From an uncultured delta proteobacterium (lineage in GTDB: Bacteria > Desulfobacterota > Binatia > Binatales > Binataceae): a stretch of DNA of 64,000 nt. The notes under the pieces are model-generated. The model did no database searches and was not told the DNA's origin. It was given only the letters and a program-made list of their open reading frames with translations. Below, in pieces: positions 6,345 to 60,738 of this stretch. The position numbers were made by a program, and so were the translations under genes. The stretch spans positions 255,467 through 319,466 of the forward strand of contig CAVZGB010000021.1 of NCBI GenBank assembly GCA_963774665.1, written 5' to 3'. Each line of letters starts with the position of its first letter. The first letter of the stretch is position 1.

Positions 6345-6431
6345 GCGCGATTGTTGCCCTTCCCTCGGGTTAGGCAGACTCTAATTCCGGTTCCCCTTCC
6401 CACTCGGGGAGGGCTTGGGGGTTAGGTTGCT
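6345..6431 (+). repeat. Structured intergenic repeat, family 2, copy i: a CCCCTTCCC-loop-GGGRAGGG hairpin followed by GGGGTTAGGTT, about 1.5 units
   Basis: Shares CGCGATTGTTSCCCTTCCCTCG…GGTTAGG with 12495-12544. Also related to 43830-43870, 60695-60738 and 50237-50278. Confidence 0.75.
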
Positions 6432-6668
6432 GCTTTTGGAGATGTCCAACTTTGCCTGACCCCAGCGGATTTTCTGTGCTACGCATATTCGCGTGGACAA
6501 ACGTCATCACATCCCGGCGTCGCCCAAATGAGGCGACGCCGGCTTCTATTTGACGGAACGAGCTACCCTTGATAGCGCCATGACGCATTTTTGCTGGTGA
6601 AAATCTCCTCCGGCAAAGATTTAGTTCTGATAGGAGGTTCAGAATATTGCGTACTAGAGGGAGGAACG

Positions 6669-7865
6669 ATGGCACGCAGCAACGGATGGATGCGCAGGAA
6701 ATGGCGGTCTCTAATTTTCGCGTCTGCGATCAGCAGCCTGATTATTTTCGCAAACGGGACAGCGTCCGCTAAAACAACTCCCCCGCTTTCGCTATGCGTT
6801 AATCACGCCGGCTCGGGCGGATGCTTAACCACAATCCAGGGCGCAGTGGACATGGTGCCGGCGGGCGGCAACGCGACTATTACCATCGCTGCCGATGTCA
6901 CCCCGTACGTAGAAGACGTCACTGTCACCGACGCAACCGTCAGCTTCGTAGGCGGCGGTGCTGGAATGACCGTGGTGGACGGCACCAACGTTTCGAGCAT
7001 TCCCACATTCAAGTTTCAAAATGATTCGAATGGCGAGCTGCACTCGATGACGATCGAGAACGGCAACGGCGGTCAAGGCAGCAACGTGAATTTCATCCAG
7101 TTCGCTTCGAAGGGCAACGGGGGCGTCGGAACCCTGAAGATCGAGAATTGTGAAATTACCGGCGGTGTACGGCCTTCCAACATCCTTCCGGAGGGCGCCA
7201 TCTTTTTCGTCGGAAAGACGCTCATCATCGATTCCTCCAGCATCGACAACAATGTGGACCAGGGCATTCTCATCGGTGGCGCGCCACACGTATTCATCAC
7301 CAACACCACCATCAGCGACAACGACACCACCGGCAATAACGGCAATGCGACCGGATGCGGAATGCACATTTCGTCGGGCACAGTTGTGCTCAACAACGAC
7401 ACCATCACAGACAACCATTGCGTGGGAGGTTCCGGCCACGGGCAATCGCCGACTGTAGGGGGCGGACTTTTCATCGATTTCCCCGCCAAAGTCTCGATAT
7501 CGAACACCGTGATTGCAAACAATACCGTCGCTGGCACTTTGCCCGCCGGGCCGGACTGTTTTGCACCCGGCAAGGGCGTCAAGTCGAAGGGATTCAATCT
7601 GATAAAGGATACCTCGTCCTGCACTATCAAGCTCCAGAAATCTGATATCGCCGCGGGAACCGACCCTTCGCTGGGTTCGCTCGCTGCGTGTGCGTCCAGC
7701 GGACTCGAGGTTGAAACGCCGCTGGGAGGCAGCCCGATAATTGGAAAAGGAAATCCGGGCAAGCTTACCGGCAAGGTTGGCGCTAAGGGCTCGAGCTGTC
7801 TGCCCACCGACGAATGCGGAGCCGCGCGCGCAAAAGGAACGTGCACCATCGGCGCTGCCCAATGA
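6669..7865 (+). CDS. Secreted right-handed parallel beta-helix repeat protein (pectate-lyase-fold; possible polysaccharide lyase or adhesin)
   Basis: Signal peptide MRRKWRSLIFASAISSLIIFANGTASA. Repeated motifs ITG/IxN/NNT…DN/G-rich rungs, and a Cys-rich C-terminus. The ORF track begins at TTG 6591; the internal ATG at about 6669 gives a proper signal peptide. Confidence 0.55.
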   Translation: MARSNGWMRRKWRSLIFASAISSLIIFANGTASAKTTPPLSLCVNHAGSGGCLTTIQGAVDMVPAGGNATITIAADVTPYVEDVTVTDATVSFVGGGAGMTVVDGTNVSSIPTFKFQNDSNGELHSMTIENGNGGQGSNVNFIQFASKGNGGVGTLKIENCEITGGVRPSNILPEGAIFFVGKTLIIDSSSIDNNVDQGILIGGAPHVFITNTTISDNDTTGNNGNATGCGMHISSGTVVLNNDTITDNHCVGGSGHGQSPTVGGGLFIDFPAKVSISNTVIANNTVAGTLPAGPDCFAPGKGVKSKGFNLIKDTSSCTIKLQKSDIAAGTDPSLGSLAACASSGLEVETPLGGSPIIGKGNPGKLTGKVGAKGSSCLPTDECGAARAKGTCTIGAAQ

Positions 7866-7924
7866 AGGGTTCGCTGACGACGTGAAATATTTTATACTTC
7901 AAGTAATGGTTTAGATTAATCACA

Positions 7925-9175
7925 ATGCCTTCCACCCTCGCAATCCTCGGCGGCCAGCCGCTTCGCACTCGCCCCTTCCCGGCGTGGCCAGTTTTCGACG
8001 TCCGCGAACGTGCGCAGCTCGAAGACGTCCTCACCTCGCAAAGCTGGGGCGGCTACCCAAGTCCCAATCGCAAGGCCGCCGAGTTCGCCGCCGCATTCGC
8101 CGCCTACCAGGGCGCTCGCTTCGCGATTCCGACCACGTCCGGCACCAGCGCGCTCGAGGTCGCACTCAAAGCACTCGGCATCGGCGCCGGCGACGAGGTC
8201 ATCGTCCCCGCGATCACTTTCGCCGCGACCCCTTACGCTGCCGTCGCATGCATGGCGCGTCCCGTCTTCGCCGACGTCAGCGCTGCTGACGCATGCATCG
8301 ATCCCAAATCCGTCAAGCGTCTGATCACGCGCCGCACCAAGGCGATCATCCCGGTCCATTACGGCGCGTCGCTCGCCGATCTCGACGCACTCGCGGAAAT
8401 CTCGCGCGCGCATTCCATCCCGATCGTCGAAGACTGCGCCCACGTCCCCGGCGCTCAGTTCCGCGATCGCGGCGTCGGCACTCACGGCGCTCTCGGATGC
8501 TTCAGTTTTCAGTCCTCGAAGCCGATGACCGCGGGCGAAGGTGGAATGATCACGACCGACGATCCCGAGCTCGAGCAGCGATGCCAGTCGCTCATCAACT
8601 GCGGACGCCGCCGCCCGGAAGACAATTTCGAAGGTCCGCTGATGGGCGCGAACTATCGGATGACGGAATGGCAATGCGGAATTCTGCTCGCGCAACTCGC
8701 GCGCCTGCCCGAACAGATCGAGCACAAGAGCCGCGCCGCCGCCCGCCTGCGCGCAGAACTCGCCGCCATCAAGGGTCTGAGCCCGATCGCACGCGATCCA
8801 CGGGTCACGCGCGAAGTAGTCTACGCATTTGTATTTCTCGTCGACGAATCCGCGCTCGGCGTGTCGCGCAATCGATTCGTCCGCGCACTTCGCGCCGAAG
8901 GCATACCATGCGGCGTCGCCAACGACCCGGTTTATCGCTCCGCACTATTTCCGCGCGAGTCCGCCCCCTATCGCAAAGCAGTTGAACTGGCGGGCGCCAA
9001 TCCCGACACCGCCGCGATCGATTGCCCCGTCGCTGAGCGTTTGTTCGAGCACGCCATCGTCTCGATACCGCACGAATGCCTGCTCGGCGACGACCACGAC
9101 CTCGACGACATCATCGCCGCAGCCGCCAAAGTGGCTTCCGGAGCCACCGACCTCGCCTCGGCCAAATTGAAATGA
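7925..9175 (+). CDS. DegT/DnrJ/EryC1/StrS family PLP-dependent aminotransferase (second paralog)
   Basis: 416 aa with aminotransferase motifs: FAIPTTSGTSALEVAL, IIPVHYGAS, IVEDCAHV and FSFQSSKPMTAGEGGMITT. Confidence 0.85.
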   Translation: MPSTLAILGGQPLRTRPFPAWPVFDVRERAQLEDVLTSQSWGGYPSPNRKAAEFAAAFAAYQGARFAIPTTSGTSALEVALKALGIGAGDEVIVPAITFAATPYAAVACMARPVFADVSAADACIDPKSVKRLITRRTKAIIPVHYGASLADLDALAEISRAHSIPIVEDCAHVPGAQFRDRGVGTHGALGCFSFQSSKPMTAGEGGMITTDDPELEQRCQSLINCGRRRPEDNFEGPLMGANYRMTEWQCGILLAQLARLPEQIEHKSRAAARLRAELAAIKGLSPIARDPRVTREVVYAFVFLVDESALGVSRNRFVRALRAEGIPCGVANDPVYRSALFPRESAPYRKAVELAGANPDTAAIDCPVAERLFEHAIVSIPHECLLGDDHDLDDIIAAAAKVASGATDLASAKLK

Positions 9176-10538
9176 GTCCCCTCTTCGCCGGAGCCGCACG
9201 CGTGAAACTCGACCCGCCGGCCGGCCTGGCGATGCTCGGTTACGGCAATCGCGTCGGCCGCAACGCCGGCATCCATGACGACCTCGCCGCGCAGGCGCTC
9301 GTGCTGAGCGACGGGGTGAACAAAGTCGCGATAGCCGGCGTCGATGTGCTCGCAATCGGGATTCGCATCGCTGACGAGATTCGCGAACGCGTCGCCGCGA
9401 GCTCCGGCATCCCGGCCGATTCGATCCTGGTTTGCGCGACGCACACGCATTCTGCGCCCGCCTTCAACATCTTCGCGACTCCGCGCGTCGACGCGAAGCC
9501 TGCTGAGGGCCGCGACCTCGAATGGGAGCGCGCGCTGCCTGAGAAGATCGCCAGCGCAATCATTCAGGCGAGCGAAAAGCTGGAGCCAGCGACGCTCCGC
9601 GCGGCTGCCTCCCAATTCACGCTCGGAATCAATCGGCGCCTGATGCGTCCGCATCGTCAAATTCAGCTTGCCGCAAATCGCGCCGGCCCAGCCGACGCCG
9701 AAGTCAGCACGCTCGGTGCATATCGCGCCGAACGGATCTCCGATCGCATTCCTGATGAACTATCCATGCCACGGCGTCGTGCTGTGCGAGGACAACCTGC
9801 TCTACTCGCGCGACTGGCCCGGCTTCGCGATGGACGAAATCGAAACCGCGGCCGCCTCCGCCGGAGGCCCTGCGCCCAATTTCGATTTTCATCCAGGGCG
9901 CGACCGGCAATATCGATCCGCGCAGCCGCGGCAACTTCGAAGTCGCCGAGCAGCACGGACGCGCGATGGGCCGCGGCGCGTTCGAAGCGCTCCAGCAGGC
10001 TCCCTCGATTGCCGACGCACGAATTGCCGCGCGCAGAATCGCGCTGAATCTCAAGCTCAAAGATCTCAGCGCCGAACTCGCCATATCGCGCGCTTGCGCC
10101 GACCAGACCCAGGCCTCGCTCGACAACCATCGCGGCGGCGACGGCTATCAGTTGAAACGTCTGCGCGACCACCATGCGCAGTCCCGCGCGGCGCTGGCCG
10201 CTCTGGAAGCCCTCGAGGAGCAAAACCGCCGCGACCGACGCGTCGACATCGAGCGCGGCGAGCTTGCCACCGCGATGACGGTCGTGACTGTCGGCAATCT
10301 CGCGATCGTCGGCATCCCCGGCGAGCTCTTCGTCGAGCTCGGACTTGCGATTAAGGCGAACCCGAACTTCGCGCGAATTTTTGTCGCCGGCTACTGCAAC
10401 GATCTCATCGGGTATATTCCCACCCGCGCCGCGTACCCCGAAGGCGGCTACGAAGTCGATACGGCGAGAATTGCCGCCGGCAGCGGCGAGACGATCGTCG
10501 ACACCGCCCTCTCAGCGCTCGCTGCGATGCGCGCGTAA
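9172..10538 (+). pseudogene. Neutral/alkaline ceramidase-like hydrolase, split over three reading frames as assembled
   Basis: Frame 1 carries MSPLFAGAARVKLDPPAGLAMLGYGNRVGRNAGIHDDL…HTHSAP. Frame 2 carries GSPIAFLMNYPCHGVVL…DW. Frame 3 carries FIQGATGNIDPR…GYCNDLIGYIPT. The single-nucleotide shifts are near 9735 and 9890. Confidence 0.5.
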
Positions 10539-10541
10539 CTC

Positions 10542-10897
10542 GTGCGCGAGATTCAACATCGCGAACTGCTCCAGATGCTCTTCGTCCGACGCGCAGGTCG
10601 TCGACGCTCTCCCGACGCACGAGTACGCCACCGCTCACATCCGCGGCGCAATTCACATCCCGGTCGGACGCGTCCTGCGCGACGCACCAGCGTTGCTCGA
10701 CCGCACGCGCCCGGTCGTCGTCTATTGCCGCGATTCGTTGTGAGACCTCAGCGCGCGAGCTGCGGCGCAGCTCGAGTTGCTCGGCTTCACCGACGTCCGC
10801 CACTACTTCCGCGGCAAGGTCGACTGGATCGTTCGCGGATCTGCCGACCGATCCGCCGGCGCCGCTCTCAGAGCGGATGCGCGCGCTTCGCTACTTC
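10542..10897 (+). pseudogene. Single-domain rhodanese (sulfurtransferase), disrupted as assembled
   Basis: The N-terminus MREIQHRELLQMLF is in one frame. SSDAQVVDALPTHEYATAHIRGAIHIP…RPVVVYCRDSL is in another, with a shift near 10585. An in-frame TGA at 10741-10743 follows the active-site CRDS. The C-terminal …AAAQLELLGFTDVRHYFRGKVDWI continues after it. Confidence 0.5.
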
Positions 10898-11257
10898 ATG
10901 AATAATCTCGCGCCCGGCCTGCGCGCGTTCTGGATTCACTACTCAGACCGGGTGCGGGTCGCCGAGTTCATGCGCGACGACCTGGTCCGCCTCGGCCCCG
11001 AAGACCACGTCCCGCCCTCTCCTCCCGATTCGCCAACGCCGCGCGCCGTCGTGCTCGATCGCAACGAAGTCTTGCTCGGCACAATCGAACGAGCCGAACC
11101 GTCACCACGCGCACTCGATACGATGAATCCCAACCCGCAAACAATCCGCCCCGACATGACCCCGCGCCTCGCTAAGAAGCTGTTGGCTTCAAATCCATAC
11201 CTGATAGTGACGACCGCGAAGGGCAAATATCTTGGACGCTACGTCCCTGAAGACTGA
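10877..11257 (+). CDS. CBS-domain protein
   Basis: C-terminal LDTMNPNPQTIRPDMTPRLAKKLLASNPYLIVTTAKGKYLGRYVPED is CBS-like. The start is uncertain; an alternative ATG lies at about 10970. Confidence 0.4.
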   Translation: MRALRYFMNNLAPGLRAFWIHYSDRVRVAEFMRDDLVRLGPEDHVPPSPPDSPTPRAVVLDRNEVLLGTIERAEPSPRALDTMNPNPQTIRPDMTPRLAKKLLASNPYLIVTTAKGKYLGRYVPED

Positions 11258-11260
11258 GCT

Positions 11261-11689
11261 CTATCGCTCGATCACGCCATCGCTCGAGATATCCAGATGG
11301 TAGGCGACTTCGCGCGCGAGCTGCTCTGGCCGTGCGCGATAGTACTCGACCTGCGGCACACCTGGGATTGCCGCGATGACGTCGTCTACTGCGACTGCCT
11401 TGAAACCGTGATGCTCGAAGAACTCGTCAGCGTCACTGCCGAACAAATAAAGATGGCGTGCGCCGCGCGTGTGCGCAGCCTTGCGCGCCGCCGCGATGAG
11501 CGCGGCTCCGATTCCTCGCCCCCGACTCGATTCATTCACGTACAACGAGCGAATCAGCGCCGCATCGATCATCGACTCGACGCCAATTACTCCGACCGCT
11601 TCATCGCCGATGTACGCCACGATGTAACACGCCGCCGGCCACTCGATTCCGTCGGTCATCATGCCGGCCCGCGCGAGCATTTCGCGCAC
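11261..11689 (-). CDS. GNAT family N-acetyltransferase
   Basis: 142 aa with acetyl-CoA binding motif …RGRGIGAALIAAA…. Confidence 0.8.
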   Translation of the reverse strand: MREMLARAGMMTDGIEWPAACYIVAYIGDEAVGVIGVESMIDAALIRSLYVNESSRGRGIGAALIAAARKAAHTRGARHLYLFGSDADEFFEHHGFKAVAVDDVIAAIPGVPQVEYYRARPEQLAREVAYHLDISSDGVIER

Positions 11690-11768
11690 GAGCGTCGAGG
11701 TTGCGCGTCTGCTCGACTACCAGTTCGCCTGCGCGATGCTTGCGTATCGCCATGTCGCCGTTCGTGAT

Positions 11769-11999
11769 CTACTTTTTCGGCGGCGGAAACAGCTGCACTC
11801 CCGCCTCGTCTACCACCGTGATTGCCTTCACCGGACACGAACGCGCAGCCGAAACAATTATCGAGTCGTCCGCGCCCGACGGGTTGACGACTTCGGACTT
11901 GCCCTCGTCGTCGAGTTGAAACACGGCCGGCGCCGTTTCCACGCAGTCGCCGCTGCCGATGCAGCGGGTTTTGTTTACCGAGATCGAAAGCTTCGCCAT
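11769..11999 (-). CDS. Small single-cluster ferredoxin (about 8 kDa)
   Basis: 76 aa carrying CIGSGDC…CP cluster ligands. Confidence 0.75.
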   Translation of the reverse strand: MAKLSISVNKTRCIGSGDCVETAPAVFQLDDEGKSEVVNPSGADDSIIVSAARSCPVKAITVVDEAGVQLFPPPKK

Positions 12000-12089
12000 C
12001 GCTACCTCCGGGGTTCTGCTTGAACAATAGAATCCACGCCGAGCGCGCGCAATTGAATCCGCCCGCAGCGCGGCTAATACTCATTCGCG

Positions 12090-12482
12090 ATGAGCCAAAT
12101 CGCAGGCACCGGCATCGACGTCATCGAAGTCGATCGCATCGAGCGCGCCCTCACGCGCCCCTCAACCGGCGAGCGCTTTCGCGCCCGTGTCTTCACTGCC
12201 GGCGAGATCAAGTATTGCGAGTCGCGCGGGCTTCCCCGCTACCAGAGCTACGCTGCGCGTTTCGCGGCCAAGGAAGCGACGATGAAGGCGTTAGGCACGG
12301 GATGGAACCGCAACGTCGGATGGAGCGAAATAGAAGTCGTGCGCGAGCGCGGCAAAGCCCCGACGATCGCGCTATCGGGCAAGGCTGCCGCCTTCGCACA
12401 GCGCAAACAAATCACGCGCTTCCACCTGAGCATCACCCACACCGCCGCCCAGGCGATCGCCCACGTGATCGCAGAAACCTGA
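12090..12482 (+). CDS. acpS: Holo-[acyl-carrier-protein] synthase (4'-phosphopantetheinyl transferase)
   Basis: 130 aa with GIDVIEVDRIERAL…FTAGEIKYC…AARFAAKEATMKALGTG. Confidence 0.85.
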   Translation: MSQIAGTGIDVIEVDRIERALTRPSTGERFRARVFTAGEIKYCESRGLPRYQSYAARFAAKEATMKALGTGWNRNVGWSEIEVVRERGKAPTIALSGKAAAFAQRKQITRFHLSITHTAAQAIAHVIAET

Positions 12483-12494
12483 GATCTTATTTAT

Positions 12495-12544
12495 CGCGAT
12501 TGTTCCCCTTCCCTCGAGGGAAGAGGTTAGGGGTTAGGTTGCCG
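12495..12544 (+). repeat. Family 2 repeat, copy ii (CCCCTTCCC TCGA GGGAAGAGG hairpin followed by TTAGGGGTTAGGTT)
   Basis: Immediately 3' of acpS, between convergent genes. Related to 6345-6431, 43830-43870 and 60695-60738. Confidence 0.75.
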
Positions 12545-12676
12545 CGGATCGAGAATAGGCCGAAAGGACGCCGCAACGCAAAACCGGAACCGGCGGCGCT
12601 TACGCGCCGCTGTCCGGAGGCCAGAAGCCAGTTCCTGCCGCTCGCGTTGCTCGCTTCGGTCAGGATGACAGGGAGG

Positions 12677-14107
12677 CTACTTCGCCGGTGACGCGGCGGC
12701 CTGCGGTGGTGGCGGCGGCGGGGCTTTTGCCATGTACAGCGGCGCGGGACGGTTGAGTTGCTCGAAGCTGAAATTGCTCAGCGAGTATACTGCCTTACTC
12801 CCGCCTGACGTCGCGTAGTATTCGGTTCGCTGTGCTGGCTCGCCGGGCATTGGCGGTGCAGTCGGCTTGACGCTGATCTTCGCGAGCTTGACCATTCCGA
12901 GCTGCTTGCCGTCCTTGCCTTCCAGCGTGATTTCGAGCGCGGGATTGTCGAGTCCGAACGGCTGCGCACTCGGCATCGGATCGGCGACGATCGATTCGCC
13001 CTTCAGATCGCGGAACTGATTGAGCAGCCGCTCGACGACTGGAATATCGGCCTCCGTCGTCTTGCTGCCAACTATGACGGACCAATTGCCGACCGGTATG
13101 CGCTTGAGGGTAAATTCGCCGTCGCTGGTTTTAACCTTGACCGTCTCGACCGACTCGGGATCAATCTTGACGATAGTCTTGTCGCGAAAATCCAGCGGCG
13201 ACTTGTCCAGGCTCGTCATTACGTATTCGGCCACCGCGTAAACCGGCGCGCGTTCTCCGCGACGCACGTAGATTCCGCTCTTGCCCTCGCCGGCCTGCTT
13301 GAATCCGAACAGCATCGATTGTTGCTCGCCGTTCTTGAGCACCACCGTGGCAGTCAGATGCGGTTTTTCGAGCCCGTATTGCGCGACGTTGGGGGGCGCG
13401 TCCGACACGAAGTCAGTCGCGCGCGCATTGACTAGCGTGCCGAGCGCCAGCCGGACCGCGGTATCATCAGCTGACGACGGTGCAGGCTTGACGATCTTCC
13501 AGTTGTCGCCGTCGCGATCGATTTCAACCGTAGCACCGTTGTCGCGCGTGATTATCAGTTTTTGAACGTCGTCGATTTTGAACGCCATCAAGTCGCGAAC
13601 GCGCAAATCATTGACCGTCTTGTTCATTCCGGCCGAGAACGCGCCTTCCGTCAGCAGCACCGCAGGACTGTTGGAGAGGTGAACGTAAGCGTTAAAGCCG
13701 ATCGGAGTCGATTTCCCGACCTCGATCGATGGAAGTGTTTTCTGGTCGAAGGTCGTCACCGTGATTGTCGTAGTGGGCGGCTTGAGCCCGAACGGCGCGA
13801 GGTCCGCTGGCTTGTCATCGACGGTGCGAACCAGGACGCCGTCTGCAATCGCACGCGCGAGGTTGTTGGCCTGCGTCTGATCGGCGTCGGCGCCGACGGG
13901 CTTCACGAGGCGCCATGACTTGCCCTTGTCGCGCTCGAGCACGATGTCCCGATCGGAATACTTGAGTTCGATTTTCGCGATGTCGTCCGGCTTGACGTTG
14001 ATCAGTTTCGGCTTTTCCTCATTCGCCGAATAGTGACCGACCACAAAAGCGTAGCCGCCGACAATCGCGAACAGGATTAGAACGATAATGGTGTTGCGCA
14101 AGCGCAT
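12677..14107 (-). CDS. DUF4340-domain protein (partner of GldG-type ABC systems), N-terminal membrane anchor
   Basis: 476 aa with a transmembrane helix at the N-terminus and a Pro-rich C-terminus. Lies immediately downstream of the GldG-like gene in the same operon. Confidence 0.6.
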   Translation of the reverse strand: MRLRNTIIVLILFAIVGGYAFVVGHYSANEEKPKLINVKPDDIAKIELKYSDRDIVLERDKGKSWRLVKPVGADADQTQANNLARAIADGVLVRTVDDKPADLAPFGLKPPTTTITVTTFDQKTLPSIEVGKSTPIGFNAYVHLSNSPAVLLTEGAFSAGMNKTVNDLRVRDLMAFKIDDVQKLIITRDNGATVEIDRDGDNWKIVKPAPSSADDTAVRLALGTLVNARATDFVSDAPPNVAQYGLEKPHLTATVVLKNGEQQSMLFGFKQAGEGKSGIYVRRGERAPVYAVAEYVMTSLDKSPLDFRDKTIVKIDPESVETVKVKTSDGEFTLKRIPVGNWSVIVGSKTTEADIPVVERLLNQFRDLKGESIVADPMPSAQPFGLDNPALEITLEGKDGKQLGMVKLAKISVKPTAPPMPGEPAQRTEYYATSGGSKAVYSLSNFSFEQLNRPAPLYMAKAPPPPPPQAAASPAK

Positions 14108-14136
14108 CGGAGATTAGGTCGCAGCCGCGGGACGCC

Positions 14137-15702
14137 TCAATTGCGCCGTTCCCACCACACAACGATCCCGGCAATCAGCAGCAACTCGGGCAGCAGCAGC
14201 ACTGCGAATGCGAACACGATCGAGAACTGCCCCTCGGTCAGGCGGAAGCGCGACGCGCGAATCGAGCGCGGCCGGATCGAGATCGAGTTTTCTTCGCCGG
14301 TCAGCCAGTCGGCGCTGTTAACGAAAAAATCGCGGTTGAAGAACGTGGTCACATATTGATTGTCGGCAAACTCGGAGCTGCCGAACACCACGATGCGCGC
14401 ATCGCCTTTGCCCCATCCCAGCTGCTGGAGGTCGCCGTTCACCGCCATCGCCACCGCGATCGGCCCGCGAGTGTCCTTCGCGCTCAGCTCGGCCTTTTGC
14501 TGCCGGAACAGCGTATCGAGGTCGACCTCCGCCCACGACGTATCACTGGTGTTCGCGATCGGCGCGACCGTAAGGCCCGGTTTCAGATTCGGCTCGGCGG
14601 TCAGCGATCGCGACATCGGGAACACGGTGCGCTGCTTGAAATCCTTGGTGATCGGATGATCGCCGTAGTTCTGCACGATCGGATTCAGACCAAGCGCGGG
14701 ACCCTCGAACAGACGGACGACCTGGTCCACCACGATGTCGTTGCCGACTTTGACGCCCCACTCGCTCGCCAGCTTGACCATCGCTTCTTCGTCGATCGGA
14801 TTGTCGGGACGCTGCGGCCGGAACATCGCGATCATGCGCCCGCCATGCTTCAGGTAGTCGTTCAACGCGTCAATCTCATGCTGCCCGAGCGGCTTGATCG
14901 GTCCCGCTACCACGACCAGGTTCGCGTCGTCAGGCACCTTCGGCAGTTGCGCGAGCTCGAGCTTGCGGACCTCGTAACCCTCGCCTTCCAGATCTTTTTT
15001 GATGGTCCCGTAGCCGGTCTGGGTTTCCGCGTCGTCGGGATCCGCCTCGCCATGCCCATCGAGGAACTCGATCACCTTCTTGGTGCTTCGGGTCGCGCGA
15101 ATGATCGCGTTGGTCAGCGATTCCTCGGTGAGGTCGGTGACGTTGGTGCCCTCGCCGCTATCAGGTCCGCCGTATTGCAGATGCGTCGTGCCCATCACAG
15201 ACACCTTGAAACGCTCGGCCAGCTCCGGATGCTTATCGGGATCGACCAGTTCGTAGGTGAACTTGGGCGAGTAGTACGCGAAGGTCTCGTAGAGTTCGCG
15301 CGCCGCCGGATTCTCGCCGCCCTGGAAGAAGCCGTACAACTTCAGCGGCTTCTGCAGCCCTTTGACCACGTTTATCGATTGGCTTGAAAGGCTGTAAACC
15401 TTTTCGCTCGTAAGGTCGAGCCGCGTGTGATGTATCGACGAAATATAGTTGACCGCGACCAGCAACCCGATGAACGCAATCGAGTAGATTGCGGCGTTGG
15501 CGCCGTAACGCGCAGAACGTCCGGTCGAGATCGATGAAAGTTCGGAGCGGCTGGACGTGATCCACAGGACGATCGCGAAGATGCCGCCGGCCAGGTTGAC
15601 CCATACGAACAGCCGAAAGCCGCTCGAAATAAAATAGTCAACCAGCCCGAACGCGAGCAGAACCAGGCCGAGAATTCCGTAAAGAGCCGCCGATCGCCGC
15701 AT
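14137..15702 (-). CDS. GldG-like auxiliary component of an ABC-2 transport system
   Basis: 521 aa with N- and C-terminal transmembrane segments flanking a large periplasmic domain. Operon position is after the ABC-2 permease. Confidence 0.7.
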   Translation of the reverse strand: MRRSAALYGILGLVLLAFGLVDYFISSGFRLFVWVNLAGGIFAIVLWITSSRSELSSISTGRSARYGANAAIYSIAFIGLLVAVNYISSIHHTRLDLTSEKVYSLSSQSINVVKGLQKPLKLYGFFQGGENPAARELYETFAYYSPKFTYELVDPDKHPELAERFKVSVMGTTHLQYGGPDSGEGTNVTDLTEESLTNAIIRATRSTKKVIEFLDGHGEADPDDAETQTGYGTIKKDLEGEGYEVRKLELAQLPKVPDDANLVVVAGPIKPLGQHEIDALNDYLKHGGRMIAMFRPQRPDNPIDEEAMVKLASEWGVKVGNDIVVDQVVRLFEGPALGLNPIVQNYGDHPITKDFKQRTVFPMSRSLTAEPNLKPGLTVAPIANTSDTSWAEVDLDTLFRQQKAELSAKDTRGPIAVAMAVNGDLQQLGWGKGDARIVVFGSSEFADNQYVTTFFNRDFFVNSADWLTGEENSISIRPRSIRASRFRLTEGQFSIVFAFAVLLLPELLLIAGIVVWWERRN

Positions 15703-15714
15703 CCGCCCCCTACC

Positions 15715-16488
15715 TTACCGCCAGCGCGCCGACTCGACCGATCGTTGGGTCAAGAACAGCGCCACGAAGATGAGACTCAGGAAATAGACAATGTCGCGCG
15801 TGTCGATGATACCGGTAACCATCTGCGCGAAATGGTCCGGCAGCGAAAGATAGCGCAGCAAGTCGGAGAATGACGATCCGCCCGCCTGCGCCGGCCACGA
15901 AATCACGAACAGCCCCAGCAGCAGGCCGAAACAACTGATCGCCGCAATTATCTGATTCTGCGTCAGCGAGCTGGTGAACAGCCCGATCGAAACGAACGAA
16001 ATCGCCAGGAACGCGAGACCCAGGTAGCCGGCGAACATCACGCCGATTTCCGGGTTACCGAATGCAATCAGGATCAGCGGGAACATTCCGGCGAGCCCGA
16101 TCATGATCAGCATGAACGCCGCCGCCGCGATGAACTTTCCCGCGACTATCTCGCCCGTGCGGATCGGCGCGGTGAGCAACAGCTCGTAGGTGCCGGTGCG
16201 CTTTTCCTCGGCAAAACTTCGCATCGTGATCGCAGGTACGAGGATGACGAGCACGATCGCGAGGTTGTGCAGCATCGGCATGATTACTCGCTCGTTGAGA
16301 TTGAGCTTCTGCAAAACTTCCGGATTCTGCATCGCAGCATATGCGGTCAGCGTCACTTCGAAGTAGCGCAGCAGCGCAAAGAAAAAGAAGCCGCCCAGCA
16401 GCAGGAACACCGTCATCACGACGTAGGCGACCGGCTGCAGGAAATATCCCGCGAGCTCCTTGCCCGCGATTGTCAGAGAATTTTTCAT
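15715..16488 (-). CDS. ABC-2 family transporter permease (GldF-like)
   Basis: 257 aa with six transmembrane segments. Follows the ABC ATPase gene. Confidence 0.75.
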   Translation of the reverse strand: MKNSLTIAGKELAGYFLQPVAYVVMTVFLLLGGFFFFALLRYFEVTLTAYAAMQNPEVLQKLNLNERVIMPMLHNLAIVLVILVPAITMRSFAEEKRTGTYELLLTAPIRTGEIVAGKFIAAAAFMLIMIGLAGMFPLILIAFGNPEIGVMFAGYLGLAFLAISFVSIGLFTSSLTQNQIIAAISCFGLLLGLFVISWPAQAGGSSFSDLLRYLSLPDHFAQMVTGIIDTRDIVYFLSLIFVALFLTQRSVESARWR

Positions 16489-16503
16489 TCGAGCGGCACG
16501 GGT

Positions 16504-17271
16504 CTAGGTATGCCCCGCTCCAACCTCCTCCAGCTTTTCTTCCGCCGTCGCACCGTCCTCGTGATGCTCTTTGGTGATCGCGTTCAGGAAAATATCTTCG
16601 AGCGAGGTCCCGGCCGGCAGCTTCTTCAGGTATTCCTCGAGCACCACACGGCCGTCGGCGATGATCACGACCTTGTCGCAAATCTGCGACACCTCGGGCA
16701 GGATGTGCGTCGAGAGCACGACGGTTCTATTGCCGGCGAGATGGTGAATCAGCCCGCGAATTTCGTGAATCTGGCGCGGGTCGAGACCGATGGTCGGTTC
16801 GTCGAGCACCAGCACCGGCGGATCATGAATCAATGCTTGCGCCAGGCCGACGCGCTGTCGATAACCCTTCGATAGCTGTCCGCAAATCCGATGCGCCATG
16901 TCGGTGAGTCCGCAAACTTCGAGCACATGCTCGAGCGCCGACTCGATCTTCGCGCGCGGGACGTCGCGGAGCTTCGCAACGAACCGCAGGTAGGCCTCGA
17001 CGCGCATGTCCGGATAGAGCGGAGGATTCTCGGGGAGGTAACCGATTTTGCGGCGAGCCTCGAGCGACTGCGAAAAAATATCGAGTCCGTCAATCAGCAC
17101 GGTGCCCGCAGTCGCCGGCATATACCCCGTGATGATGCGCATCGTGGTGGTTTTGCCGGCGCCGTTGGGGCCTAGAAAGCCGAGGATGGACCCGCTCTCG
17201 GCCTTGAACGATACGTCTTTAACCGCGACAAAGTTGCCGTAGGCTTTAGTTAGGTTTTTAACCTCAATCAT
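16504..17271 (-). CDS. ABC transporter ATP-binding protein (GldA-like)
   Basis: Walker A GPNGAGKTTT, signature LSKGYRQRVGLA and Walker B VLVLDEPT. Confidence 0.9.
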   Translation of the reverse strand: MIEVKNLTKAYGNFVAVKDVSFKAESGSILGFLGPNGAGKTTTMRIITGYMPATAGTVLIDGLDIFSQSLEARRKIGYLPENPPLYPDMRVEAYLRFVAKLRDVPRAKIESALEHVLEVCGLTDMAHRICGQLSKGYRQRVGLAQALIHDPPVLVLDEPTIGLDPRQIHEIRGLIHHLAGNRTVVLSTHILPEVSQICDKVVIIADGRVVLEEYLKKLPAGTSLEDIFLNAITKEHHEDGATAEEKLEEVGAGHT

Positions 17272-17580
17272 TCAGTTCGTCCGATTCCAGAGCCGCCTGC
17301 GTCACAACCGAGTCGGTCGGTCAAATGAATTGACGATACGAACCACACGGTAATTCGATCAACAACAAGGCAACCGTCTAATTAAACACGCCACGCTGAA
17401 CTGTCAATACGATGATCTAAGGCGGTAGTGGTTCAGTTCAAAAGTCCGACTGACTCTTCGACGGTCCAAACCAGGTCCGAAACGTTGGCTTCCATCGCAA
17501 GCGTAAACTGATTCTCCATGCGCGAGCGGAGCCGTTGGCCGATCGCGGATGGTGTGTTAACTTTGTGATGGATAGAGATC

Positions 17581-17760
17581 ATGAAGCATCAGGCTAACAC
17601 GAAACGCTCTGAGACCAAGCGCCCTAAGACCAGCCTTCGAGACTTGGAACGGGTCGGTGAAGTCATTTCTGAAAGCCGCAGTTTTTTCGGTAATCTTCCA
17701 GAAATCAAACTAGCGAAGAAAATCCGATTGGATCGAATCGTGAAAGTCGCCAAGCGATAG
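17581..17760 (+). CDS. Small ORF (59 aa, basic), possible antitoxin-like partner of the downstream PIN gene
   Basis: ATG 17581 to TAG 17760, below the ORF-track length cutoff. Lies in the low-GC islet in the same frame and direction as the PIN N-terminus. Confidence 0.25.
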   Translation: MKHQANTKRSETKRPKTSLRDLERVGEVISESRSFFGNLPEIKLAKKIRLDRIVKVAKR

Positions 17761-17772
17761 AGCGCCTTTCAG

Positions 17773-18287
17773 TTGCCCGCGAATCGGCATCTCTTCAGCG
17801 ACAACCCGCTCCCGACCGAAATCGTTGTCGATTCCAGCTTTGTTTTCCATGCGCTGATAGAAGACGAGAGAAGCGGATATCACGTCCCCGCCGCGACTTT
17901 GCGGAAAGATTGCGCGGTGCGAACGCCACCCTGATCTATTCGGCTTTGATTTTCCTCGAAGCGCCTCAATGCTGGAAACGCTTGTACAATACGGGCGCGC
18001 TGCTCCCGTCAAAGCGGGGTGCGGATCTCGCCAACGACAGAGCGAGCGCTTTCACTGAAGCAAATACTGCTCTTCAAACCTTTCTTTCCGCGTTCAACAG
18101 AAAGGAAGTGCGCGTTACGAAACAGCTCATGAAAAGCGCGACTGCTCAGGTCGCTGAGTTCAATCTCGGTTCCCACGATGCAATTGCAGTTGCAATTTCT
18201 CGTTCCGGGGTTCCAAATGTTGCCGCTCTTGATCGGGGATTCAAGAGGGTTGACGGAATCGAGCTATGGGACGGAATGCTCACGTAG
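17773..18287 (+). pseudogene. PIN-domain (VapC-like) toxin homolog, frameshifted as assembled
   Basis: N-terminal EIVVDSSFVFHALIEDE is in one frame, with a TTG start at about 17773. …LIYSALIFLE…LGSHDAIAVAISRSGVPNVAALDRGFKRVDGIELW is in the 17910..18287 frame. The shift is near 17905. Confidence 0.4.
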
Positions 18288-18340
18288 GCGATTTGCTTTT
18301 GGGACCCTGTTGCTTTGCGGACTGTATCGGATAGTTTCGA

Positions 18341-45282: not shown

Positions 45283-45987
45283 ATGGCGAATGGGGCTGGC
45301 GGCTCGATCGCACCTTACTTCACGATTTGGACTGAACCGCGCGCGACGATTCGGCGTATCGTCGACACGAATCCGACCCGCAACGTAATCGCGCTCGCGG
45401 CTATCGGGCCAGCGATTAGTGCGCTTTCCTTTGAGTGTTTGAAGGCGAAAGAGCTCGGCAGCGAACACATCAGTCTGCTATGGGCCACCGCCTTCGTCGC
45501 AGCCAAGCCAGTTCTCGGAGTAATCAACCTGTTTATTGGTGGCGTGGTTTTAAGATGGACAGGAAGCCTGCTGGGCGGCGTCGCGAGCTCCGTCGAACTG
45601 CGGGCCGCGATCGCGTGGCCTCAGGTAATCAAGATTGGCGGTGGGATTCTCGGGCTGCTGATCTGGATCGTGCTCGGCATGCCGGTACCTCATCTTACGC
45701 CTGGAACGTTGCAGCAAATCGATTCTCCGTTTCCTCGTATCGCGGTCGTCGGGGGACTAGTCGGAGGAGCGTTCGTGTTTTGGGAACTCGTCGTCTGGCT
45801 GAAGTGTATTGGCGAGGTGCATCGTTTCTCGGCATGGCGCGCATTGGCGGCGACGCTGATACCAGGGCTCATTGGGTTTGCCGCATTCGTTTTCATCGAC
45901 TCTGCATTGGGTCCTCTATTACATCACCGATCAAATTCACCTAAAATCGCGCAGCCTGAACCGAGAAGCGACGGCGCTCATCCCTGA
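45283..45987 (+). CDS. Yip1-domain membrane protein, paralog 1
   Basis: 234 aa with five transmembrane segments. The N-terminal 45 aa and 60 nt of 5' leader are identical to paralog 2. Confidence 0.55.
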   Translation: MANGAGGSIAPYFTIWTEPRATIRRIVDTNPTRNVIALAAIGPAISALSFECLKAKELGSEHISLLWATAFVAAKPVLGVINLFIGGVVLRWTGSLLGGVASSVELRAAIAWPQVIKIGGGILGLLIWIVLGMPVPHLTPGTLQQIDSPFPRIAVVGGLVGGAFVFWELVVWLKCIGEVHRFSAWRALAATLIPGLIGFAAFVFIDSALGPLLHHRSNSPKIAQPEPRSDGAHP

Positions 45988-46104
45988 CTGCGGCCCCGCG
46001 CGATTGTAACGACCTCATGCTCTCGACTGCGGCCGAGCTTCCATCTGTTGCGCGAGCGGTCGGGATGGTAACGTTGCTAGACTCGAGACGGGACGGGGGC
46101 TTCG

Positions 46105-46743
46105 ATGGCGAATGGGGCTGGCGGCTCGATCGCACCTTACTTCACGATTTGGACTGAACCGCGCGCGACGATTCGGCGTATCGTCGACACGAATCCGACC
46201 CGCAACGTAATCGCGCTCGCGGCTATCGGGCCCGCCGTCGGTGCGCTGGCGAATCAGTGGTCGAAGGCGCTGGGCGATACCACCAATCTGTCGTCGCTGT
46301 GGCCGATCGAGGTCGCGTTCTCGGTCGCATTCGCGGCGGTCCTCGGCGTGGTCTCTCTGTACATTTCGGGCGTGATCTTGAAATGGTCGGGAGGACTGCT
46401 AGGCGGCGTCGCGAGCCGGGTCGAAGTGCGGGCCGCGCTGGCCTGGGGGCAGATTCCTGCGATCGCCGCCGAGATCATCCTGCTGCTCGCGGTCCTTCAG
46501 GGCATCGCAATACCGCATCCGACGGCAGCCGAGATGCTCAAGGTCGATCCGGCGTTTTACAAGGTCGGCGTCGTCGAAGGCGTGCTGACAATCTGGGGCA
46601 GTATCGTCGTGCTGTACTGTATCGCCGAAGTGCATCGATTCTCCGCGTGGCGGGCGTTTTGCGCGACTCTGATCCCGGCTCTCATTGCGATGGTCGTCCT
46701 CGGGGCCGCGGTCTGGGTGCTCTACGGACTCGTCCATCACTGA
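46105..46743 (+). CDS. Yip1-domain membrane protein, paralog 2
   Basis: 212 aa, about 45% identical to paralog 1 after residue 46. The shared C-terminal motif is …IAEVHRFSAWRA…. Confidence 0.55.
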   Translation: MANGAGGSIAPYFTIWTEPRATIRRIVDTNPTRNVIALAAIGPAVGALANQWSKALGDTTNLSSLWPIEVAFSVAFAAVLGVVSLYISGVILKWSGGLLGGVASRVEVRAALAWGQIPAIAAEIILLLAVLQGIAIPHPTAAEMLKVDPAFYKVGVVEGVLTIWGSIVVLYCIAEVHRFSAWRAFCATLIPALIAMVVLGAAVWVLYGLVHH

Positions 46744-50236: not shown

Positions 50237-50278
50237 CCCTCACCTTTGCCCCGTCTCACGGGAGAGGGGAAGAAATCC
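50237..50278 (+). repeat. Family 2-related hairpin (…GCCCCGTCTC ACGG GAGAGGGGAAGAAATCC), partial
   Basis: 17 of 18 positions match the GGAGAGGGGAAGAGATCC segment at 60721-60738. Lies just 3' of the MATE gene on the minus strand. Confidence 0.55.
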
Positions 50279-59180: not shown

Positions 59181-60706
59181 TGGCGAGTGCGGGCAGAATC
59201 GGACCAGTCCCGGTCACCGAGGATACTTCGACCATCGACCGAATCGAACCGATGGCGGGCGTTCCGCTTATCTTCGAACTTTCATCCGAGGGTCGGCGCG
59301 GAGCCGATTTGTCGCCGCGCACGGCTGATAGACGGGGCGCCGAACTACTGGGCGCCGAGCTTTGCCGCGAGGATCTCCCCGGTTTTCCCGAACTGAGCGA
59401 GCCACAGGTGCTGCGGCACTTCCTGCGTCTGTCGCAGCTCAACTTCGCGCAGGCGCTGGAGTTCTATCCGCTCGGATCGTGCACGATGAAGTACAACCCG
59501 GTCGTGAACGATGAACTCGCGGCACTGCCTGGGCTGGCGGGACTGCATCCGGCGACGCCCGCGCACCTGGCGCAAGGCGCGCTCGAATTGATCGCGCGGA
59601 TGGAAGCTGCGCTCGCGGAAATCACCGGCATGGACGCCGTGTCGCTGCATCCGGCGGCCGGCGCGCAGGGCGAGTTGACGGGACTTCTGATGGTCCGCGC
59701 GTATCATCGCAAGCGCGGCGAAGTGCGGCACAAGGTGATCATCCCGGATACGGCGCACGGCACCAATCCTGCCAGCTGCACGCTCGCGGGCTTCGAGGTG
59801 ATCGTCGCGAAATCGAACCGGCGCGGCTATCTCGAAGCGGCTGAGGTTCGGCGGTTGGTGAGCGACGACGTGGCCGCGATGATGGTCACCAATCCAAACA
59901 CGCTCGGAATTTTCGAGCCGCAAATCCAGGAGATCGCGGCTGCGCTGCACGAGCGTGGCGCGATGCTCTATCTCGACGGCGCGAATATGAATGCCCTGCT
60001 CGGCGTTGCGAAGCCCGGACACATGGGCGCGGACATCGTGCAACTGAACTTGCACAAGAGTTTCTCGACTCCGCACGGCGGCGGCGGTCCGGGCGCGGGA
60101 CCGGTTGCGGTGAGAAAGCATCTCGAGCCGTTCCTGCCGCTCCCCCGCTTGAAGCATTCCGACGCCGGGTACGAAATCGACGGCGATCGGCCGGACTCGA
60201 TCGGACGGATGCGCTCCTATCACAACAACTTCGGAATGATTGTGCGCGCCTATGCGTATATTCTCGCGCTCGGCGGCGACGGACTCGGGATGGCGAGCCG
60301 GCTCGCGATTCTCGGCGCGAACTACGTGCGCAAACGGCTGGAGCCGCACTTTCCGAGTGCCACCGGCGAGCCGTCGATGCATGAATGCGTGCTCTCGCAC
60401 GACCTAGAAAAGCGCGCCGACGTGAGCACGCTCGAAATCGCCAAGCGTCTGCTCGATTTCGGTATCCATCCGCCGACGATCTATTTCCCGCTGGTAGTGC
60501 CGGGCGCGCTGATGATCGAGCCGACCGAGACCGAGAGCAAGCAAATCCTGGACAGCTTCGTCGATACGATGGAGCGCATTTACGACGAAGCGTTGAGCGA
60601 TCCAGAGCGCGTCAAGAATGCGCCGCAGACCTTGCCGGTCTCGCGCGTCGACGAGGCGCTGGCCGCGCGCCGCCCGATTTTGAGGTGGGAGAAACCTCTC
60701 CCCTAA
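59180..60706 (+). CDS. gcvPB: Glycine dehydrogenase (decarboxylating) subunit 2
   Basis: …NLHKSFSTPHGGGGPG… carries the PLP-lysine. The GTG at 59177 or ATG at 59180 overlaps the gcvPA stop. Confidence 0.9.
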   Translation: MASAGRIGPVPVTEDTSTIDRIEPMAGVPLIFELSSEGRRGADLSPRTADRRGAELLGAELCREDLPGFPELSEPQVLRHFLRLSQLNFAQALEFYPLGSCTMKYNPVVNDELAALPGLAGLHPATPAHLAQGALELIARMEAALAEITGMDAVSLHPAAGAQGELTGLLMVRAYHRKRGEVRHKVIIPDTAHGTNPASCTLAGFEVIVAKSNRRGYLEAAEVRRLVSDDVAAMMVTNPNTLGIFEPQIQEIAAALHERGAMLYLDGANMNALLGVAKPGHMGADIVQLNLHKSFSTPHGGGGPGAGPVAVRKHLEPFLPLPRLKHSDAGYEIDGDRPDSIGRMRSYHNNFGMIVRAYAYILALGGDGLGMASRLAILGANYVRKRLEPHFPSATGEPSMHECVLSHDLEKRADVSTLEIAKRLLDFGIHPPTIYFPLVVPGALMIEPTETESKQILDSFVDTMERIYDEALSDPERVKNAPQTLPVSRVDEALAARRPILRWEKPLP

Positions 60707-60738
60707 CCCCTCTCCCTTCTGGAGAGGGGAAGAGATCC
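60695..60738 (-). repeat. Family 2 repeat, copy iv, in reverse orientation (CCTAACCCC / CCCTCTCC CTTCT GGAGAGGG)
   Basis: Overlaps the last three codons and stop of gcvPB. Lies between the convergent gcvPB and mobA. Confidence 0.7.

Follow-up and report, generated by a model that had tools for sequence, protein, structure and literature searches.

Dispersed three-part repeats of a Binatia genome as probable triplex motifs with a candidate DUF559 nuclease partner

Introduction

What are the short hairpins that recur between the genes of a 64,000-nucleotide stretch of an uncultured Binatia genome (contig CAVZGB010000021.1, positions 255,467 to 319,466 of assembly GCA_963774665.1; hereafter the window), and by what means did they spread? 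An initial annotation had described five loci at which a pyrimidine/purine hairpin is usually followed by a common tail, and had read them as bidirectional terminators or as composite elements like those built from repetitive extragenic palindromes (REPs), the bacterial interspersed mosaic elements (BIMEs). The five hairpins are all present where they had been placed. That account missed the defining feature of the repeat, a mirror-repeat third strand. We conclude that the elements very probably belong to the intrastrand triplex motifs described from Escherichia coli. With more reserve, we favour a fuller statement in which they are also mobile and functionally tied to DUF559 nuclease genes, which inverted copies of the motif bracket in sister genomes.

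The class II intrastrand triplex motif of E. coli was described as BoxC, later as PIT elements and later still as TMECO (PMC4666352); Hoyne et al. 2000, as cited in PMC4666352, is among the earlier descriptions of this motif class. The TMECO pattern reads CCCTCNCCC-N3-6-GGGNGAGGG-N3-GGGNGAGGG, with TTA as the second loop in type A (PMC4666352). Single strands of the E. coli motif form very stable triplexes by circular dichroism (CD) and nuclear magnetic resonance (NMR), with 18 imino signals and melting temperatures (Tm) of 70-82 C, and RNA forms no purine-motif triplexes (PMC4666352). The motifs are always intergenic, show no strand bias, sometimes stand as inverted pairs and are linked to local genomic variability, and PIT elements have neither promoter nor terminator activity (PMC4666352). 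Triplex motifs rich in G/C are very abundant in some cyanobacteria, and the main survey reports that no transposase or integrase remnant has ever been found near triplex motifs (PMC4666352).

Results

The repeat family is real, with four clear copies and one decayed copy in the window (i to v, Table 1). Its tail 16-mer GGTTAGGGGTTAGGTT occurs there four times with up to 3 mismatches, against 0.14 expected (four or more in 0 of 100 shuffles), and a relaxed hairpin-plus-tail finder returned 4 matches in the window and 0-1 in each of 20 shuffles. Density is ~1 element per 13-16 kb both in the window and in the Binatia loci that were fetched for comparison (L numbers below). These loci derive from a scan of one genome per species for the exact 18-mer tail, which yielded at least 117 stretches. 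Among the matches listed, most came from ~29 Binatia genomes, with a few from Nostocales cyanobacteria and one from Gemmata, and nearly all Binatia matches carried the same hairpin upstream of the tail.

The tail TTAGGGGTTAGG is the mirror of the purine arm of the hairpin, with A frequently replaced by T. A scan blind to the tail, run for perfect 9-bp pyrimidine/purine hairpins over at least 117 loci plus the window, gave 14 stem types, and the segment that follows the purine arm mirrors that arm. Written as arm, loop and third strand, the series includes GGGAAGGGG-tta-GGGGTTAGG (copy iii, the major type), GAAAGGGGG-tga-GGGGGATAG, GGGGAGAGG-ttt-GGAGAGGGG, GGAGAGGGG-tta-GGGGAGAGG (copy iv), AGGGAGAGG-atgaa-GGTGAGGGT and GGAGGAGGG-tta-GGGTGGAGG. 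With the stem type that had served for fetching set aside, the other 13 had a mirror tail of at least 8/9 positions on one strand in 28/72 hairpin-strand instances (36 hairpins), compared with 0.3% of random genomic 17-mers. Anchoring the test on G gave 20 combinations of purine arm and tail from 10 stem types in which every G is mirrored (null, 47/20,700); positions mirroring A in these 10 stem types held A 32 times, T 18 times, G once and C never. Copy iv differs from copy iii by compensating changes across all three strands. Applied to 722 kb of Binatia DNA, a class II finder recovered 137 elements, compared with 0 when the sequence was reversed.

Purine-motif triplexes use the triplets G*G.C and A*A.T or T*A.T, their third strand running antiparallel to the purine arm, and the order pyrimidine arm (Y), purine arm (R), third strand (RH) on one strand gives a 'paperclip' triplex. 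Because mirror symmetry together with A/T equivalence is the code of the purine-motif triplex, we read the tail as a third strand; neither a G-quadruplex nor a plain hairpin demands this code. Copies iii and iv have the order Y-R-RH and segments of 9+9+9 nt, inside the class II ranges of 6-15 nt for stems and at most 1 mismatch; the third-strand rule holds at 9/9 positions in copy iv and at 8/9 in copy iii (8/8 with a bulged A). Their first loop of 4-5 nt and second loop, TTA, lie within the 1-6 nt of the class. We therefore regard membership of the triplex-motif class as very probable. A pyrimidine-motif triplex on the C-rich strand is disfavoured, since the T-for-A changes in RH would place A in the Hoogsteen strand.

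The unit of 35-45 nt would thus comprise a leader, a 9-nt Y, a loop of 4-5 nt, R, the TTA loop and a 9-nt RH of G, A and T that mirrors R. When the G-rich strand becomes single-stranded, Y and R would pair as a Watson-Crick hairpin and RH would fold back antiparallel to R in the major groove, giving a class II purine-motif intrastrand triplex. By analogy with the E. coli measurements, and given the covariation, single-stranded copies very likely fold in this way, and the fold would matter at a single-stranded DNA stage rather than in RNA. H-DNA shares the triplet chemistry and the mirror symmetry of the purine strand; it forms from duplex under supercoiling with two segments, whereas here the Y arm lies on the same strand and the fold is self-contained. 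H-DNA would also need a homopurine tract, which the A-to-T changes in RH disrupt.

The likeness to BoxC, PIT and TMECO extends to every part: a 9-nt Y, a loop of 3-6 nt, a 9-nt R, a 3-nt loop (TTA in type A) and a G-rich mirror strand of 9 nt, one triplet of which is often mismatched, in multi-copy, strictly intergenic, strain-variable elements that are single or in inverted pairs. The stems differ, CCCCTTCCC and CCCCTCTCC here compared with CCCTCNCCC in TMECO. Binatota lay outside the 2015 survey, the density here is higher, and exact insertion boundaries and a linked gene are found here; for E. coli, no mobility function was reported. None of the window copies matches the strict TMECO pattern, and its regular expression matches only L015 and L101 among the fetched sequences. 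The TMECO-pattern sequence in these two Binatia loci is CCCTCGCCC..GGGNGAGGG-TTA-GGGTGAGGG (L015, minus-strand offset 5037; L101, 7890-7925, plus strand).

The candidate partner came from a search for genes caught between inverted motif pairs in the Binatia loci. Two genomes carry such a gene, an open reading frame (ORF) of 127-131 aa that matches Pfam DUF559 (E 1e-31 and 1e-35). DUF559 is a Vsr-like PD-(D/E)xK nuclease domain. The start codon lies 8-25 nt past the end of a major-family motif, an inverted copy overlaps the stop codon, and both ends of each unit are alike in leader and loop type. A third genome (L092) has the same two ends around an internally deleted DUF559 ORF, and L090 has a motif followed by the 5' remnant of a DUF559 gene. 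Where five further Binatia DUF559 genes were chosen by protein similarity alone, a motif stood 20-24 nt before the ATG in 5/5; their 3' ends comprised two intact inverted copies and one partial copy, with one gene interrupted by a motif and one truncated. Over all Binatia loci, the 5' motif is present at 9/9 DUF559 genes and the inverted 3' motif at 6/9. Loop type is the same at both ends in 4-5 of 6 units (~0.12 by chance) and follows the protein: GCTC-loop units encode proteins 85-100% identical to the L090 reference, and TCGA, GCGC or ACTAT units encode proteins with 71-73% identity.

The association extends to 80 metagenome loci picked only by DUF559 similarity (37-64% identity), in which the strict finder registered 127 motifs in 257 kb. 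A motif stood just upstream of DUF559 in 28/73 testable loci, an inverted motif at the gene end in 31/73 (24 of them beginning within -14 to +9 nt of the predicted end), and motifs at both gene ends in 22/66. Flanks more than 300 nt away held 13 motifs in 183.5 kb (0.07 per kb), a ~35-fold lower density, and the motifs flanking DUF559 had 29 different R arms. In a model-free inverted-repeat test, roughly one locus in two exceeded the 95th percentile of the cross-locus control, and the best alignments were all of the form Y-loop-R-loop-RH; a direct-orientation control was unsuitable here, as hairpins align with themselves.

Two loci show further arrangements. In L114 (5980-6490, a metagenome-assembled genome (MAG) labelled 'delta proteobacterium'), a DUF559 gene ends in an inverted motif with a hairpin-forming second loop of 15 nt, and just upstream stands the end of an earlier DUF559 gene bearing the same motif, so that the units stand in tandem. 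In L221 (301-747) a Binatia DUF559 ORF is interrupted by an inverted triplex motif and its coding sequence resumes downstream; motifs can therefore insert into the presumed partner gene. Among viral contigs the 21-mer was found in only 5 stretches, none with a DUF559 match.

The Binatia DUF559 protein matches PDB entry 3HRL (E 2e-17); a weaker match (E 3e-4) is to 3R3P, the catalytic domain of a homing endonuclease from a mobile intron. By sequence the DUF559 protein shares a nuclease fold with Vsr, the EDxHD homing endonuclease I-Bth0305I (3R3P) and 3HRL; it differs from Vsr and I-Bth0305I in having no mismatch-repair or intron context, the proteins being stand-alone, 117-131 aa long and placed between triplex motifs. 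E. coli YcjD was grouped with Vsr by bioinformatics (PMC1189080). In E. coli K-12 the end of this DUF559 gene, ycjD (..NRRSPSP*), is formed by a decayed inverted motif. Between ycjD and fabI, a spacer of 367 nt holds a second DUF559 3'-end fragment abutting ..GGGTTAGGGG as well as an intact TMECO, CCCTCGCCC-ctctg-GGGAGAGGG-TTA-GGGTGAGGG. ycjD is present in 3,378/5,426 complete E. coli genomes and sits where the eefRABCD operon was lost at least twice (PMC12817139). Strain 536, which is without ycjD, has no motif on the fabI side of the locus; counts of BoxC places do not separate ycjD-plus from ycjD-minus strains. We found no publication linking DUF559 or ycjD with BoxC or triplex motifs, in a search that left out subscription journals and is no proof of novelty.

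Comparison of relatives revealed gains and losses of whole motifs. The GcvPB protein of the host is 95% identical to a Candidatus Binatus protein, which places it in Binatia (Binatota). In the window GcvPB ends ..ILRWEKPLP* and in the 95% relative ..ILRWERPLP, compared with ..ILRWEKKA* or ..ILRWEKKE* in relatives at 92-94%; more distant relatives have GcvPB with ordinary ends. Relatives at 92-93% have the same neighbours and an empty site, GGGAGAA/GAAGG, at which the window carries exactly 35 nt more (RH, TAA, R, loop, Y). This insertion, bounded exactly by the motif, is thus present in the window and the 95% relative and absent from the 92-93% relatives, in which GcvPB keeps an intact C-terminus. 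Loci L116 and L066 differ by a clean 39-nt presence/absence gap of the major type. In a sister strain of the window (ENA contig_23502, L001; one protein identical, DNA 97.7% identical), copy ii is missing together with the adjoining 125-nt repeat; in an 84% relative, this ACPS/DUF4340 junction holds a copy of opposite orientation.

Leaders and loops are linked across copies. GATTGTT goes with TCGA (14/20 copies with the GATTGTT leader), and CCGG or CTGG with GCTC, GCGC or ACTAT; the linked variants are common to 7-9 genomes each, at non-orthologous sites, as expected when distinct source copies are propagated. The initial annotation had remarked an upstream sequence common to copies i and ii; this sequence, CGCGATTGTT, is real and is the leader of one such lineage, tied to loop TCGA. 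Conservation around the 34-nt core runs from -7 to +2. New copies are often inserted after the ..GGTTA of an older copy, and the junction R-arm GGTTA/CTCC-N8-12-CYGGTT-new copy recurs in L018, L062, L100, L065, L040, L071 and L031. The GGGGTTA heptamer, which takes in loop 2 and the end of the purine arm before it, has grown to 3-4 units in Binatia copies L081, L037 and L213/L217, and long tandem arrays of it occur in some cyanobacterial and other genomes (L014, L030 and L073 among the loci), which suggests that the motif seeds slippage. Copies in the window are mobile, and they are neither coding nor autonomous.

Elements avoid coding sequence. Of 137 Binatia elements, 113 are cleanly intergenic, although a crude gene finder labels 84% of the sequence coding. 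Twenty appeared to lie inside ORFs; none of the six most internal-looking cases, checked with Pfam, was supported as a true interruption (one over-extended 5' end, five ORFs without Pfam support), and the remaining cases lie by position mostly at ORF ends or in very short ORFs. The initial annotation had named a lack of copies elsewhere, or coding placement, as grounds for abandoning the family; copies are found in at least 29 related genomes and not in coding regions. The 113 intergenic elements comprise 36 in convergent, 32 in tandem-sense, 22 in tandem-antisense and 23 in divergent gaps, compared with 21.5% convergent, 23% divergent and 56% tandem among background gaps 40 nt or longer. There is a mild enrichment of convergent gaps, the direction of transcription is immaterial, and one fifth of elements lie in promoter regions. 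Relative to the majority gene direction the elements split 65 against 72, with no bias. The G-rich motif strand lies more often on the locally C-rich strand (85 vs 49; 134 elements, Binatia loci L003-L118), a tendency not significant at one element per locus (46 vs 34), and the 8-kb windows are short for a replication-strand test. In 17/58 cases the opposite-strand convergent gene ends at a TAA inside the tail.

All window copies sit at gene 3' ends, as first described, and three of them (ii, iii and iv) rather than four lie between convergent genes. Copy ii separates ACPS (stop 12482) from DUF4340 (stop 12677), copy iii a short-chain dehydrogenase from a glyoxalase-family ORF, and copy iv gcvPB from a MobA-like gene. 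Pfam and the ORF lists place copy i between tandem genes, ABM and then a beta-helix protein, and copy v is likewise between tandem MatE and APH. The glyoxalase-family ORF stops at a TAA that is the complement of the TTA loop of copy iii (43857-43859). In the same way gcvPB, on the plus strand and called co-directional, ends at the TAA complementary to the TTA loop of copy iv, which provides its last codons and stop (..EKPLP*).

The copies differ in state of decay; fold energies, computed as DNA with ViennaRNA, cover the hairpin part only and not the third strand. Copy iii is intact, with a perfect 9-bp stem and a DNA hairpin of -11.6 kcal/mol (z -2.7), and copy iv, also intact, represents a second stem type (perfect 9-bp stem, -11.2 kcal/mol, z -2.2) in which GGGGAGAGG mirrors R perfectly. 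The stem of copy ii has one mismatch, in R (GGGAAGAGG). Locus i consists of two copies. One is a remnant whose purine arm and most of whose third strand are deleted and whose leader and loop fit the GATTGTT-TCGA lineage; the other, copy i, is degraded to an 8-bp stem that includes a T.G pair (-6.1 kcal/mol, z -0.09) and is also found in the 97.7%-identity relative. Copy v, with tail type GGTGAGGG, keeps its Y arm and third strand, has a mutated R arm and a poor fold, and is a weak call. Upstream of copy iii, CCATCCCCT (43819-43827) is a 9/9 mirror tail for the opposite strand as well.

Table 1. Copies of the triplex motif and other repeats and signals located in the window (positions count from its first letter)
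Feature	Positions	Strand	Description
Remnant copy	6347-6374	+	GATTGTT leader; Y arm GCCCTTCCC; TCGA loop; GGTTAGG retained
Copy i	6386-6428	+	Leader TCCGG-TT; Y CCCCTTCCC (6393-6401); loop ACTC; degraded R GGGGAGGG; CTT; third strand GGGGGTTAGG; TT
Copy ii	12496-12540	+	Leader GCGATTGTT; Y CCCCTTCCC (12505-12513); loop TCGA; R GGGAAGAGG; TTA; third strand GGGGTTAGG (12530-12538); TT
Older truncated copy	43786-43816	+	GTTCCCTTC-TCGA-GCGAGCGAAGTGCGGTTA; ends ..GGTTA, then CTCC; decayed
Copy iii	43827-43870	+	Leader TCTGG-TT; Y CCCCTTCCC (43834-43842); loop ACTAT; R GGGAAGGGG (43848-43856); loop TTA (43857-43859); third strand GGGGTTAGG (43860-43868); TT
Copy iv	60695-60729	-	Y CCCCTCTCC; loop AGAAG; R GGAGAGGGG; TTA; third strand GGGGAGAGG
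Copy v	50237-50269	-	Decayed member of the CCTCTCCCT/AGGGAGAGG/GGTGAGGGT subfamily; aligned to members in L025 and L064
Family-1 unit	43658-43745	+	Three hairpins, GTGAAACCC..GGGTTTCAC, GGGCAGGGG..CCCCTGC and GCGGGAC..GTCCC; precedes copy iii
Family-1 unit	160-233	+	
Family-1 unit	4544-4592	-	
Dispersed ~125-nt repeat	12545-12670	+	Directly after copy ii
Partial match to ~125-nt repeat	5843-5868		Inverted
Canonical intrinsic terminator	6514-6542	+	11-bp stem CCGGCGTCGCC..GGCGACGCCGG, then CTTCTATTTG; ~85 nt past copy i
225-nt direct repeat	45223-45447 and 46045-46269		94% identity; over upstream regions and 5' ends of two ORFs
ORFs under the 225-nt repeat	45283-45987 and 46105-46743	+	

The motif also takes part in mosaics. 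One copy had been seen directly after a unit of another dispersed repeat, family 1, and co-occurrence had been proposed as a check; copy iii does follow such a unit, and in Binatia a triplex motif lies 20-142 nt downstream of the family-1 core in the same orientation at 15/46 units (other arrangements, 1). This bears out the co-occurrence, in one fixed arrangement, and family 1 is a recurrent polar partner of the motif; it has no Rfam match. Motifs of the GAAAGGGGG type often stand ~30 nt before a major-type motif. The major type (TTCCCCTTCCC-loop-GGGAAGGGGTTAGGGGTTAGGTT) occurs in Nostocales too (L002, L008, L012, L016, L019, L047, L055, L061, L085, L104 and L105) and in Gemmata (L060), and its cyanobacterial copies usually form head-to-head pairs with a GA-type motif, separated by 22-30 nt of A+T-rich spacer; the copies in other phyla reflect either convergence in a small sequence space or horizontal transfer.

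Other features of the window lie beside the family. Stretches 77-84% similar to the ~125-nt repeat occur in L045, L029, L046, L044, L082, L065 and L071. The 225-nt direct repeat is probably a tandem gene duplication. Rfam gave no match at the gathering threshold in the window and chance-level ones only around copy iii (E above 1, with E up to 10 allowed), no tRNA or tmRNA was found in the window, and the literature on cyanobacterial 'small dispersed repeats' yielded nothing relevant.

Discussion

Each window copy is probably the solo end of a DUF559 cassette and would be a terminal repeat of a ~0.47-kb unit that, in sister Binatia, consists of two inverted copies around a DUF559 gene. The nuclease would act in trans on the folded or foldable motif and so spread copies, much as the REP-associated tyrosine transposase (RAYT) does for REPs, and effects on the host (donated stop codons, stable hairpins at 3' ends, local indel-prone sites) would be side effects. 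This mobilising role for DUF559, in the RAYT sense, we put forward tentatively. The statement as a whole, joining triplex class, mobility and a functional tie to DUF559, we consider somewhat more probable than not to be right.

Comparison with known mobile systems delimits the proposal. REPs and REP doublets (REPINs) with their RAYTs are likewise short, structured intergenic repeats present in hundreds of copies and in BIME-like mosaics, with a gene of single-copy type flanked by two inverted copies and with repeat and gene lineages that go together. The gene here is a DUF559 PD-(D/E)xK nuclease and not a Y1 HUH transposase, the repeat lacks the GTAG foot and has a third-strand segment, and one 35-nt motif, instead of a doublet, can be what moves. 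Leaders read TCCGGTT or GCGATTGTT, and the flanked DUF559 gene has no Y1_Tnp match. The REP/BIME-like reading of the initial annotation is apt as an analogy (short, dispersed, intergenic, polymorphic and clustered elements, with a bracketed gene), and the element itself is not a REP. Insertion sequences (ISs) and miniature inverted-repeat transposable elements (MITEs) are similar in having, as here, terminal inverted repeats (TIRs; ~43 nt) around one small ORF, with a deleted derivative, L092, that keeps both ends. They differ in that the ORF here is outside known transposase families, no target-site duplication was seen, each TIR is a three-part structure, and the commonest derivative is a solo end rather than TIR-spacer-TIR; the solo unit is one structured repeat, and two ends occur only in the DUF559 cassette and L092.

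Several observations weigh against our interpretation. The E. coli motif in duplex form is an ordinary duplex, and dimethyl sulfate (DMS) footprinting detected no triplex in vivo (PMC4666352). In the major stem type, one triplet is non-canonical or an A is bulged (GGGGTTAGG, ideally GGGGTTGGG). The insertion junctions at gcvPB and in L116/L066 have no target-site duplication, and no clear target consensus was seen beyond pyrimidine-rich flanks. The window itself holds no DUF559 gene, so the link comes from sister genomes; in the broad sample only ~40% of DUF559 genes have flanking motifs that the strict finder picks up; and BoxC copies persist in E. coli strains without ycjD. Association alone cannot separate a nuclease that mobilises the motif from a selfish nuclease that homes into it or a motif that regulates the gene.

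The main alternative, which we consider unlikely, treats the motifs as structure-prone 'accident sites' that arise without a dedicated enzyme, through slippage, fork stalling and error-prone repair, and the DUF559 genes as selfish homing-type genes that target them; an accident-site origin was proposed for TMECO by Holder et al. (PMC4666352). It would account for the unusual variability of E. coli TMECO loci, where no mobility gene was reported, for the GGGGTTA slippage in some copies (L081, L037, L213), for the frequent position of new copies within or beside old ones, for the resemblance of DUF559 to a homing-endonuclease domain and for the position of ycjD at a site of repeated operon loss (PMC12817139). 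Slippage, however, can neither create a mirror repeat nor insert an exact 35-nt three-part unit into an unrelated site, and identical leader-loop lineages stand at non-orthologous sites of 7-9 genomes. A homing gene, moreover, would split one target instead of being flanked by two complete, lineage-matched inverted copies.

Hairpins that act in RNA, as bidirectional terminators or as exonuclease barriers stabilising upstream mRNAs (as some REPs do), are a much less probable explanation. All five window copies follow the end of a same-strand gene, convergent regions are over-represented (36/113 vs 21.5% of background gaps), and a 9-bp G+C-rich stem would be stable in RNA. The terminator reading nevertheless fails on several counts: the tail is TTAGGGGTTAGGTT, with no U-run (T-run in DNA), and a terminator scan of positions 1-20000 returns the separate signal at 6514-6542, probably the real ABM terminator, and not the elements. 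Orientation plays no part, with 23/113 copies in divergent gaps and 32 sense against 22 antisense copies in tandem ones. A co-varying third strand would have no role in RNA, which lacks purine-motif triplexes, and PIT elements have no terminator or promoter activity (PMC4666352); nor did any Rfam family match.

Binding sites for a host protein, kept by selection for nucleoid organisation or replication pausing, would fit the high copy number, the exact sequence conserved across ~29 species and the weak tendency of the G-rich strand towards the C-excess strand (85/134). We judge them highly improbable, as proteins do not read repeats by mirror symmetry, copies are gained and lost between strains of 93-98% identity, many are decayed (i, v and remnants), and the skew is not significant per locus (46 vs 34). 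Least probable of all is a G-quadruplex in the G-rich half (R, TTA and RH), or an i-motif on the C-rich strand, acting as a regulatory or replication signal modulated by the Y arm: GGGAAGGGGTTAGGGGTTAGG does have G-runs of 3, 4, 4 and 2, and the quadruplex was a formal competitor for TMECO (Holder et al., PMC4666352), yet the major type falls short of the canonical four runs of 3 or more G with short loops between them, GA-type subfamilies (GGAGAGAGG-TTT-GGAGAGAGG) have no run above 2, a quadruplex needs neither positional mirror symmetry, nor exclusion of C at A positions (0/51), nor a complementary Y arm, and the 18 imino signals of the E. coli motif fit a triplex and not a quadruplex (PMC4666352).

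Under the triplex-motif interpretation, a known repeat class of unexplained function reaches, with the window element, an uncultured phylum in which its density is high. DUF559 bracketing, seen in three independent data sets, offers a concrete candidate partner for a class that has had no function or known means of spread. More broadly, and as a possibility that we weigh slightly below even, BoxC, PIT and TM repeats, without explanation since the 1990s, may be the terminal inverted repeats and solo derivatives of an unrecognised class of ~0.47-kb DUF559 cassettes that would span Binatota, many metagenomic lineages and the ycjD of E. coli, with a nuclease that reads the three-stranded fold. If so, the relation of DUF559 to triplex motifs would parallel that of RAYT to REPs, a large family defined by a domain of unknown function would gain a likely role, and the cassettes may offer a natural case of a protein reading a DNA triple helix. 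For annotation, motifs donate stop codons and change the C-termini of neighbouring proteins, as with gcvPB here. The idea is directly testable in E. coli K-12 through ycjD and BoxC.

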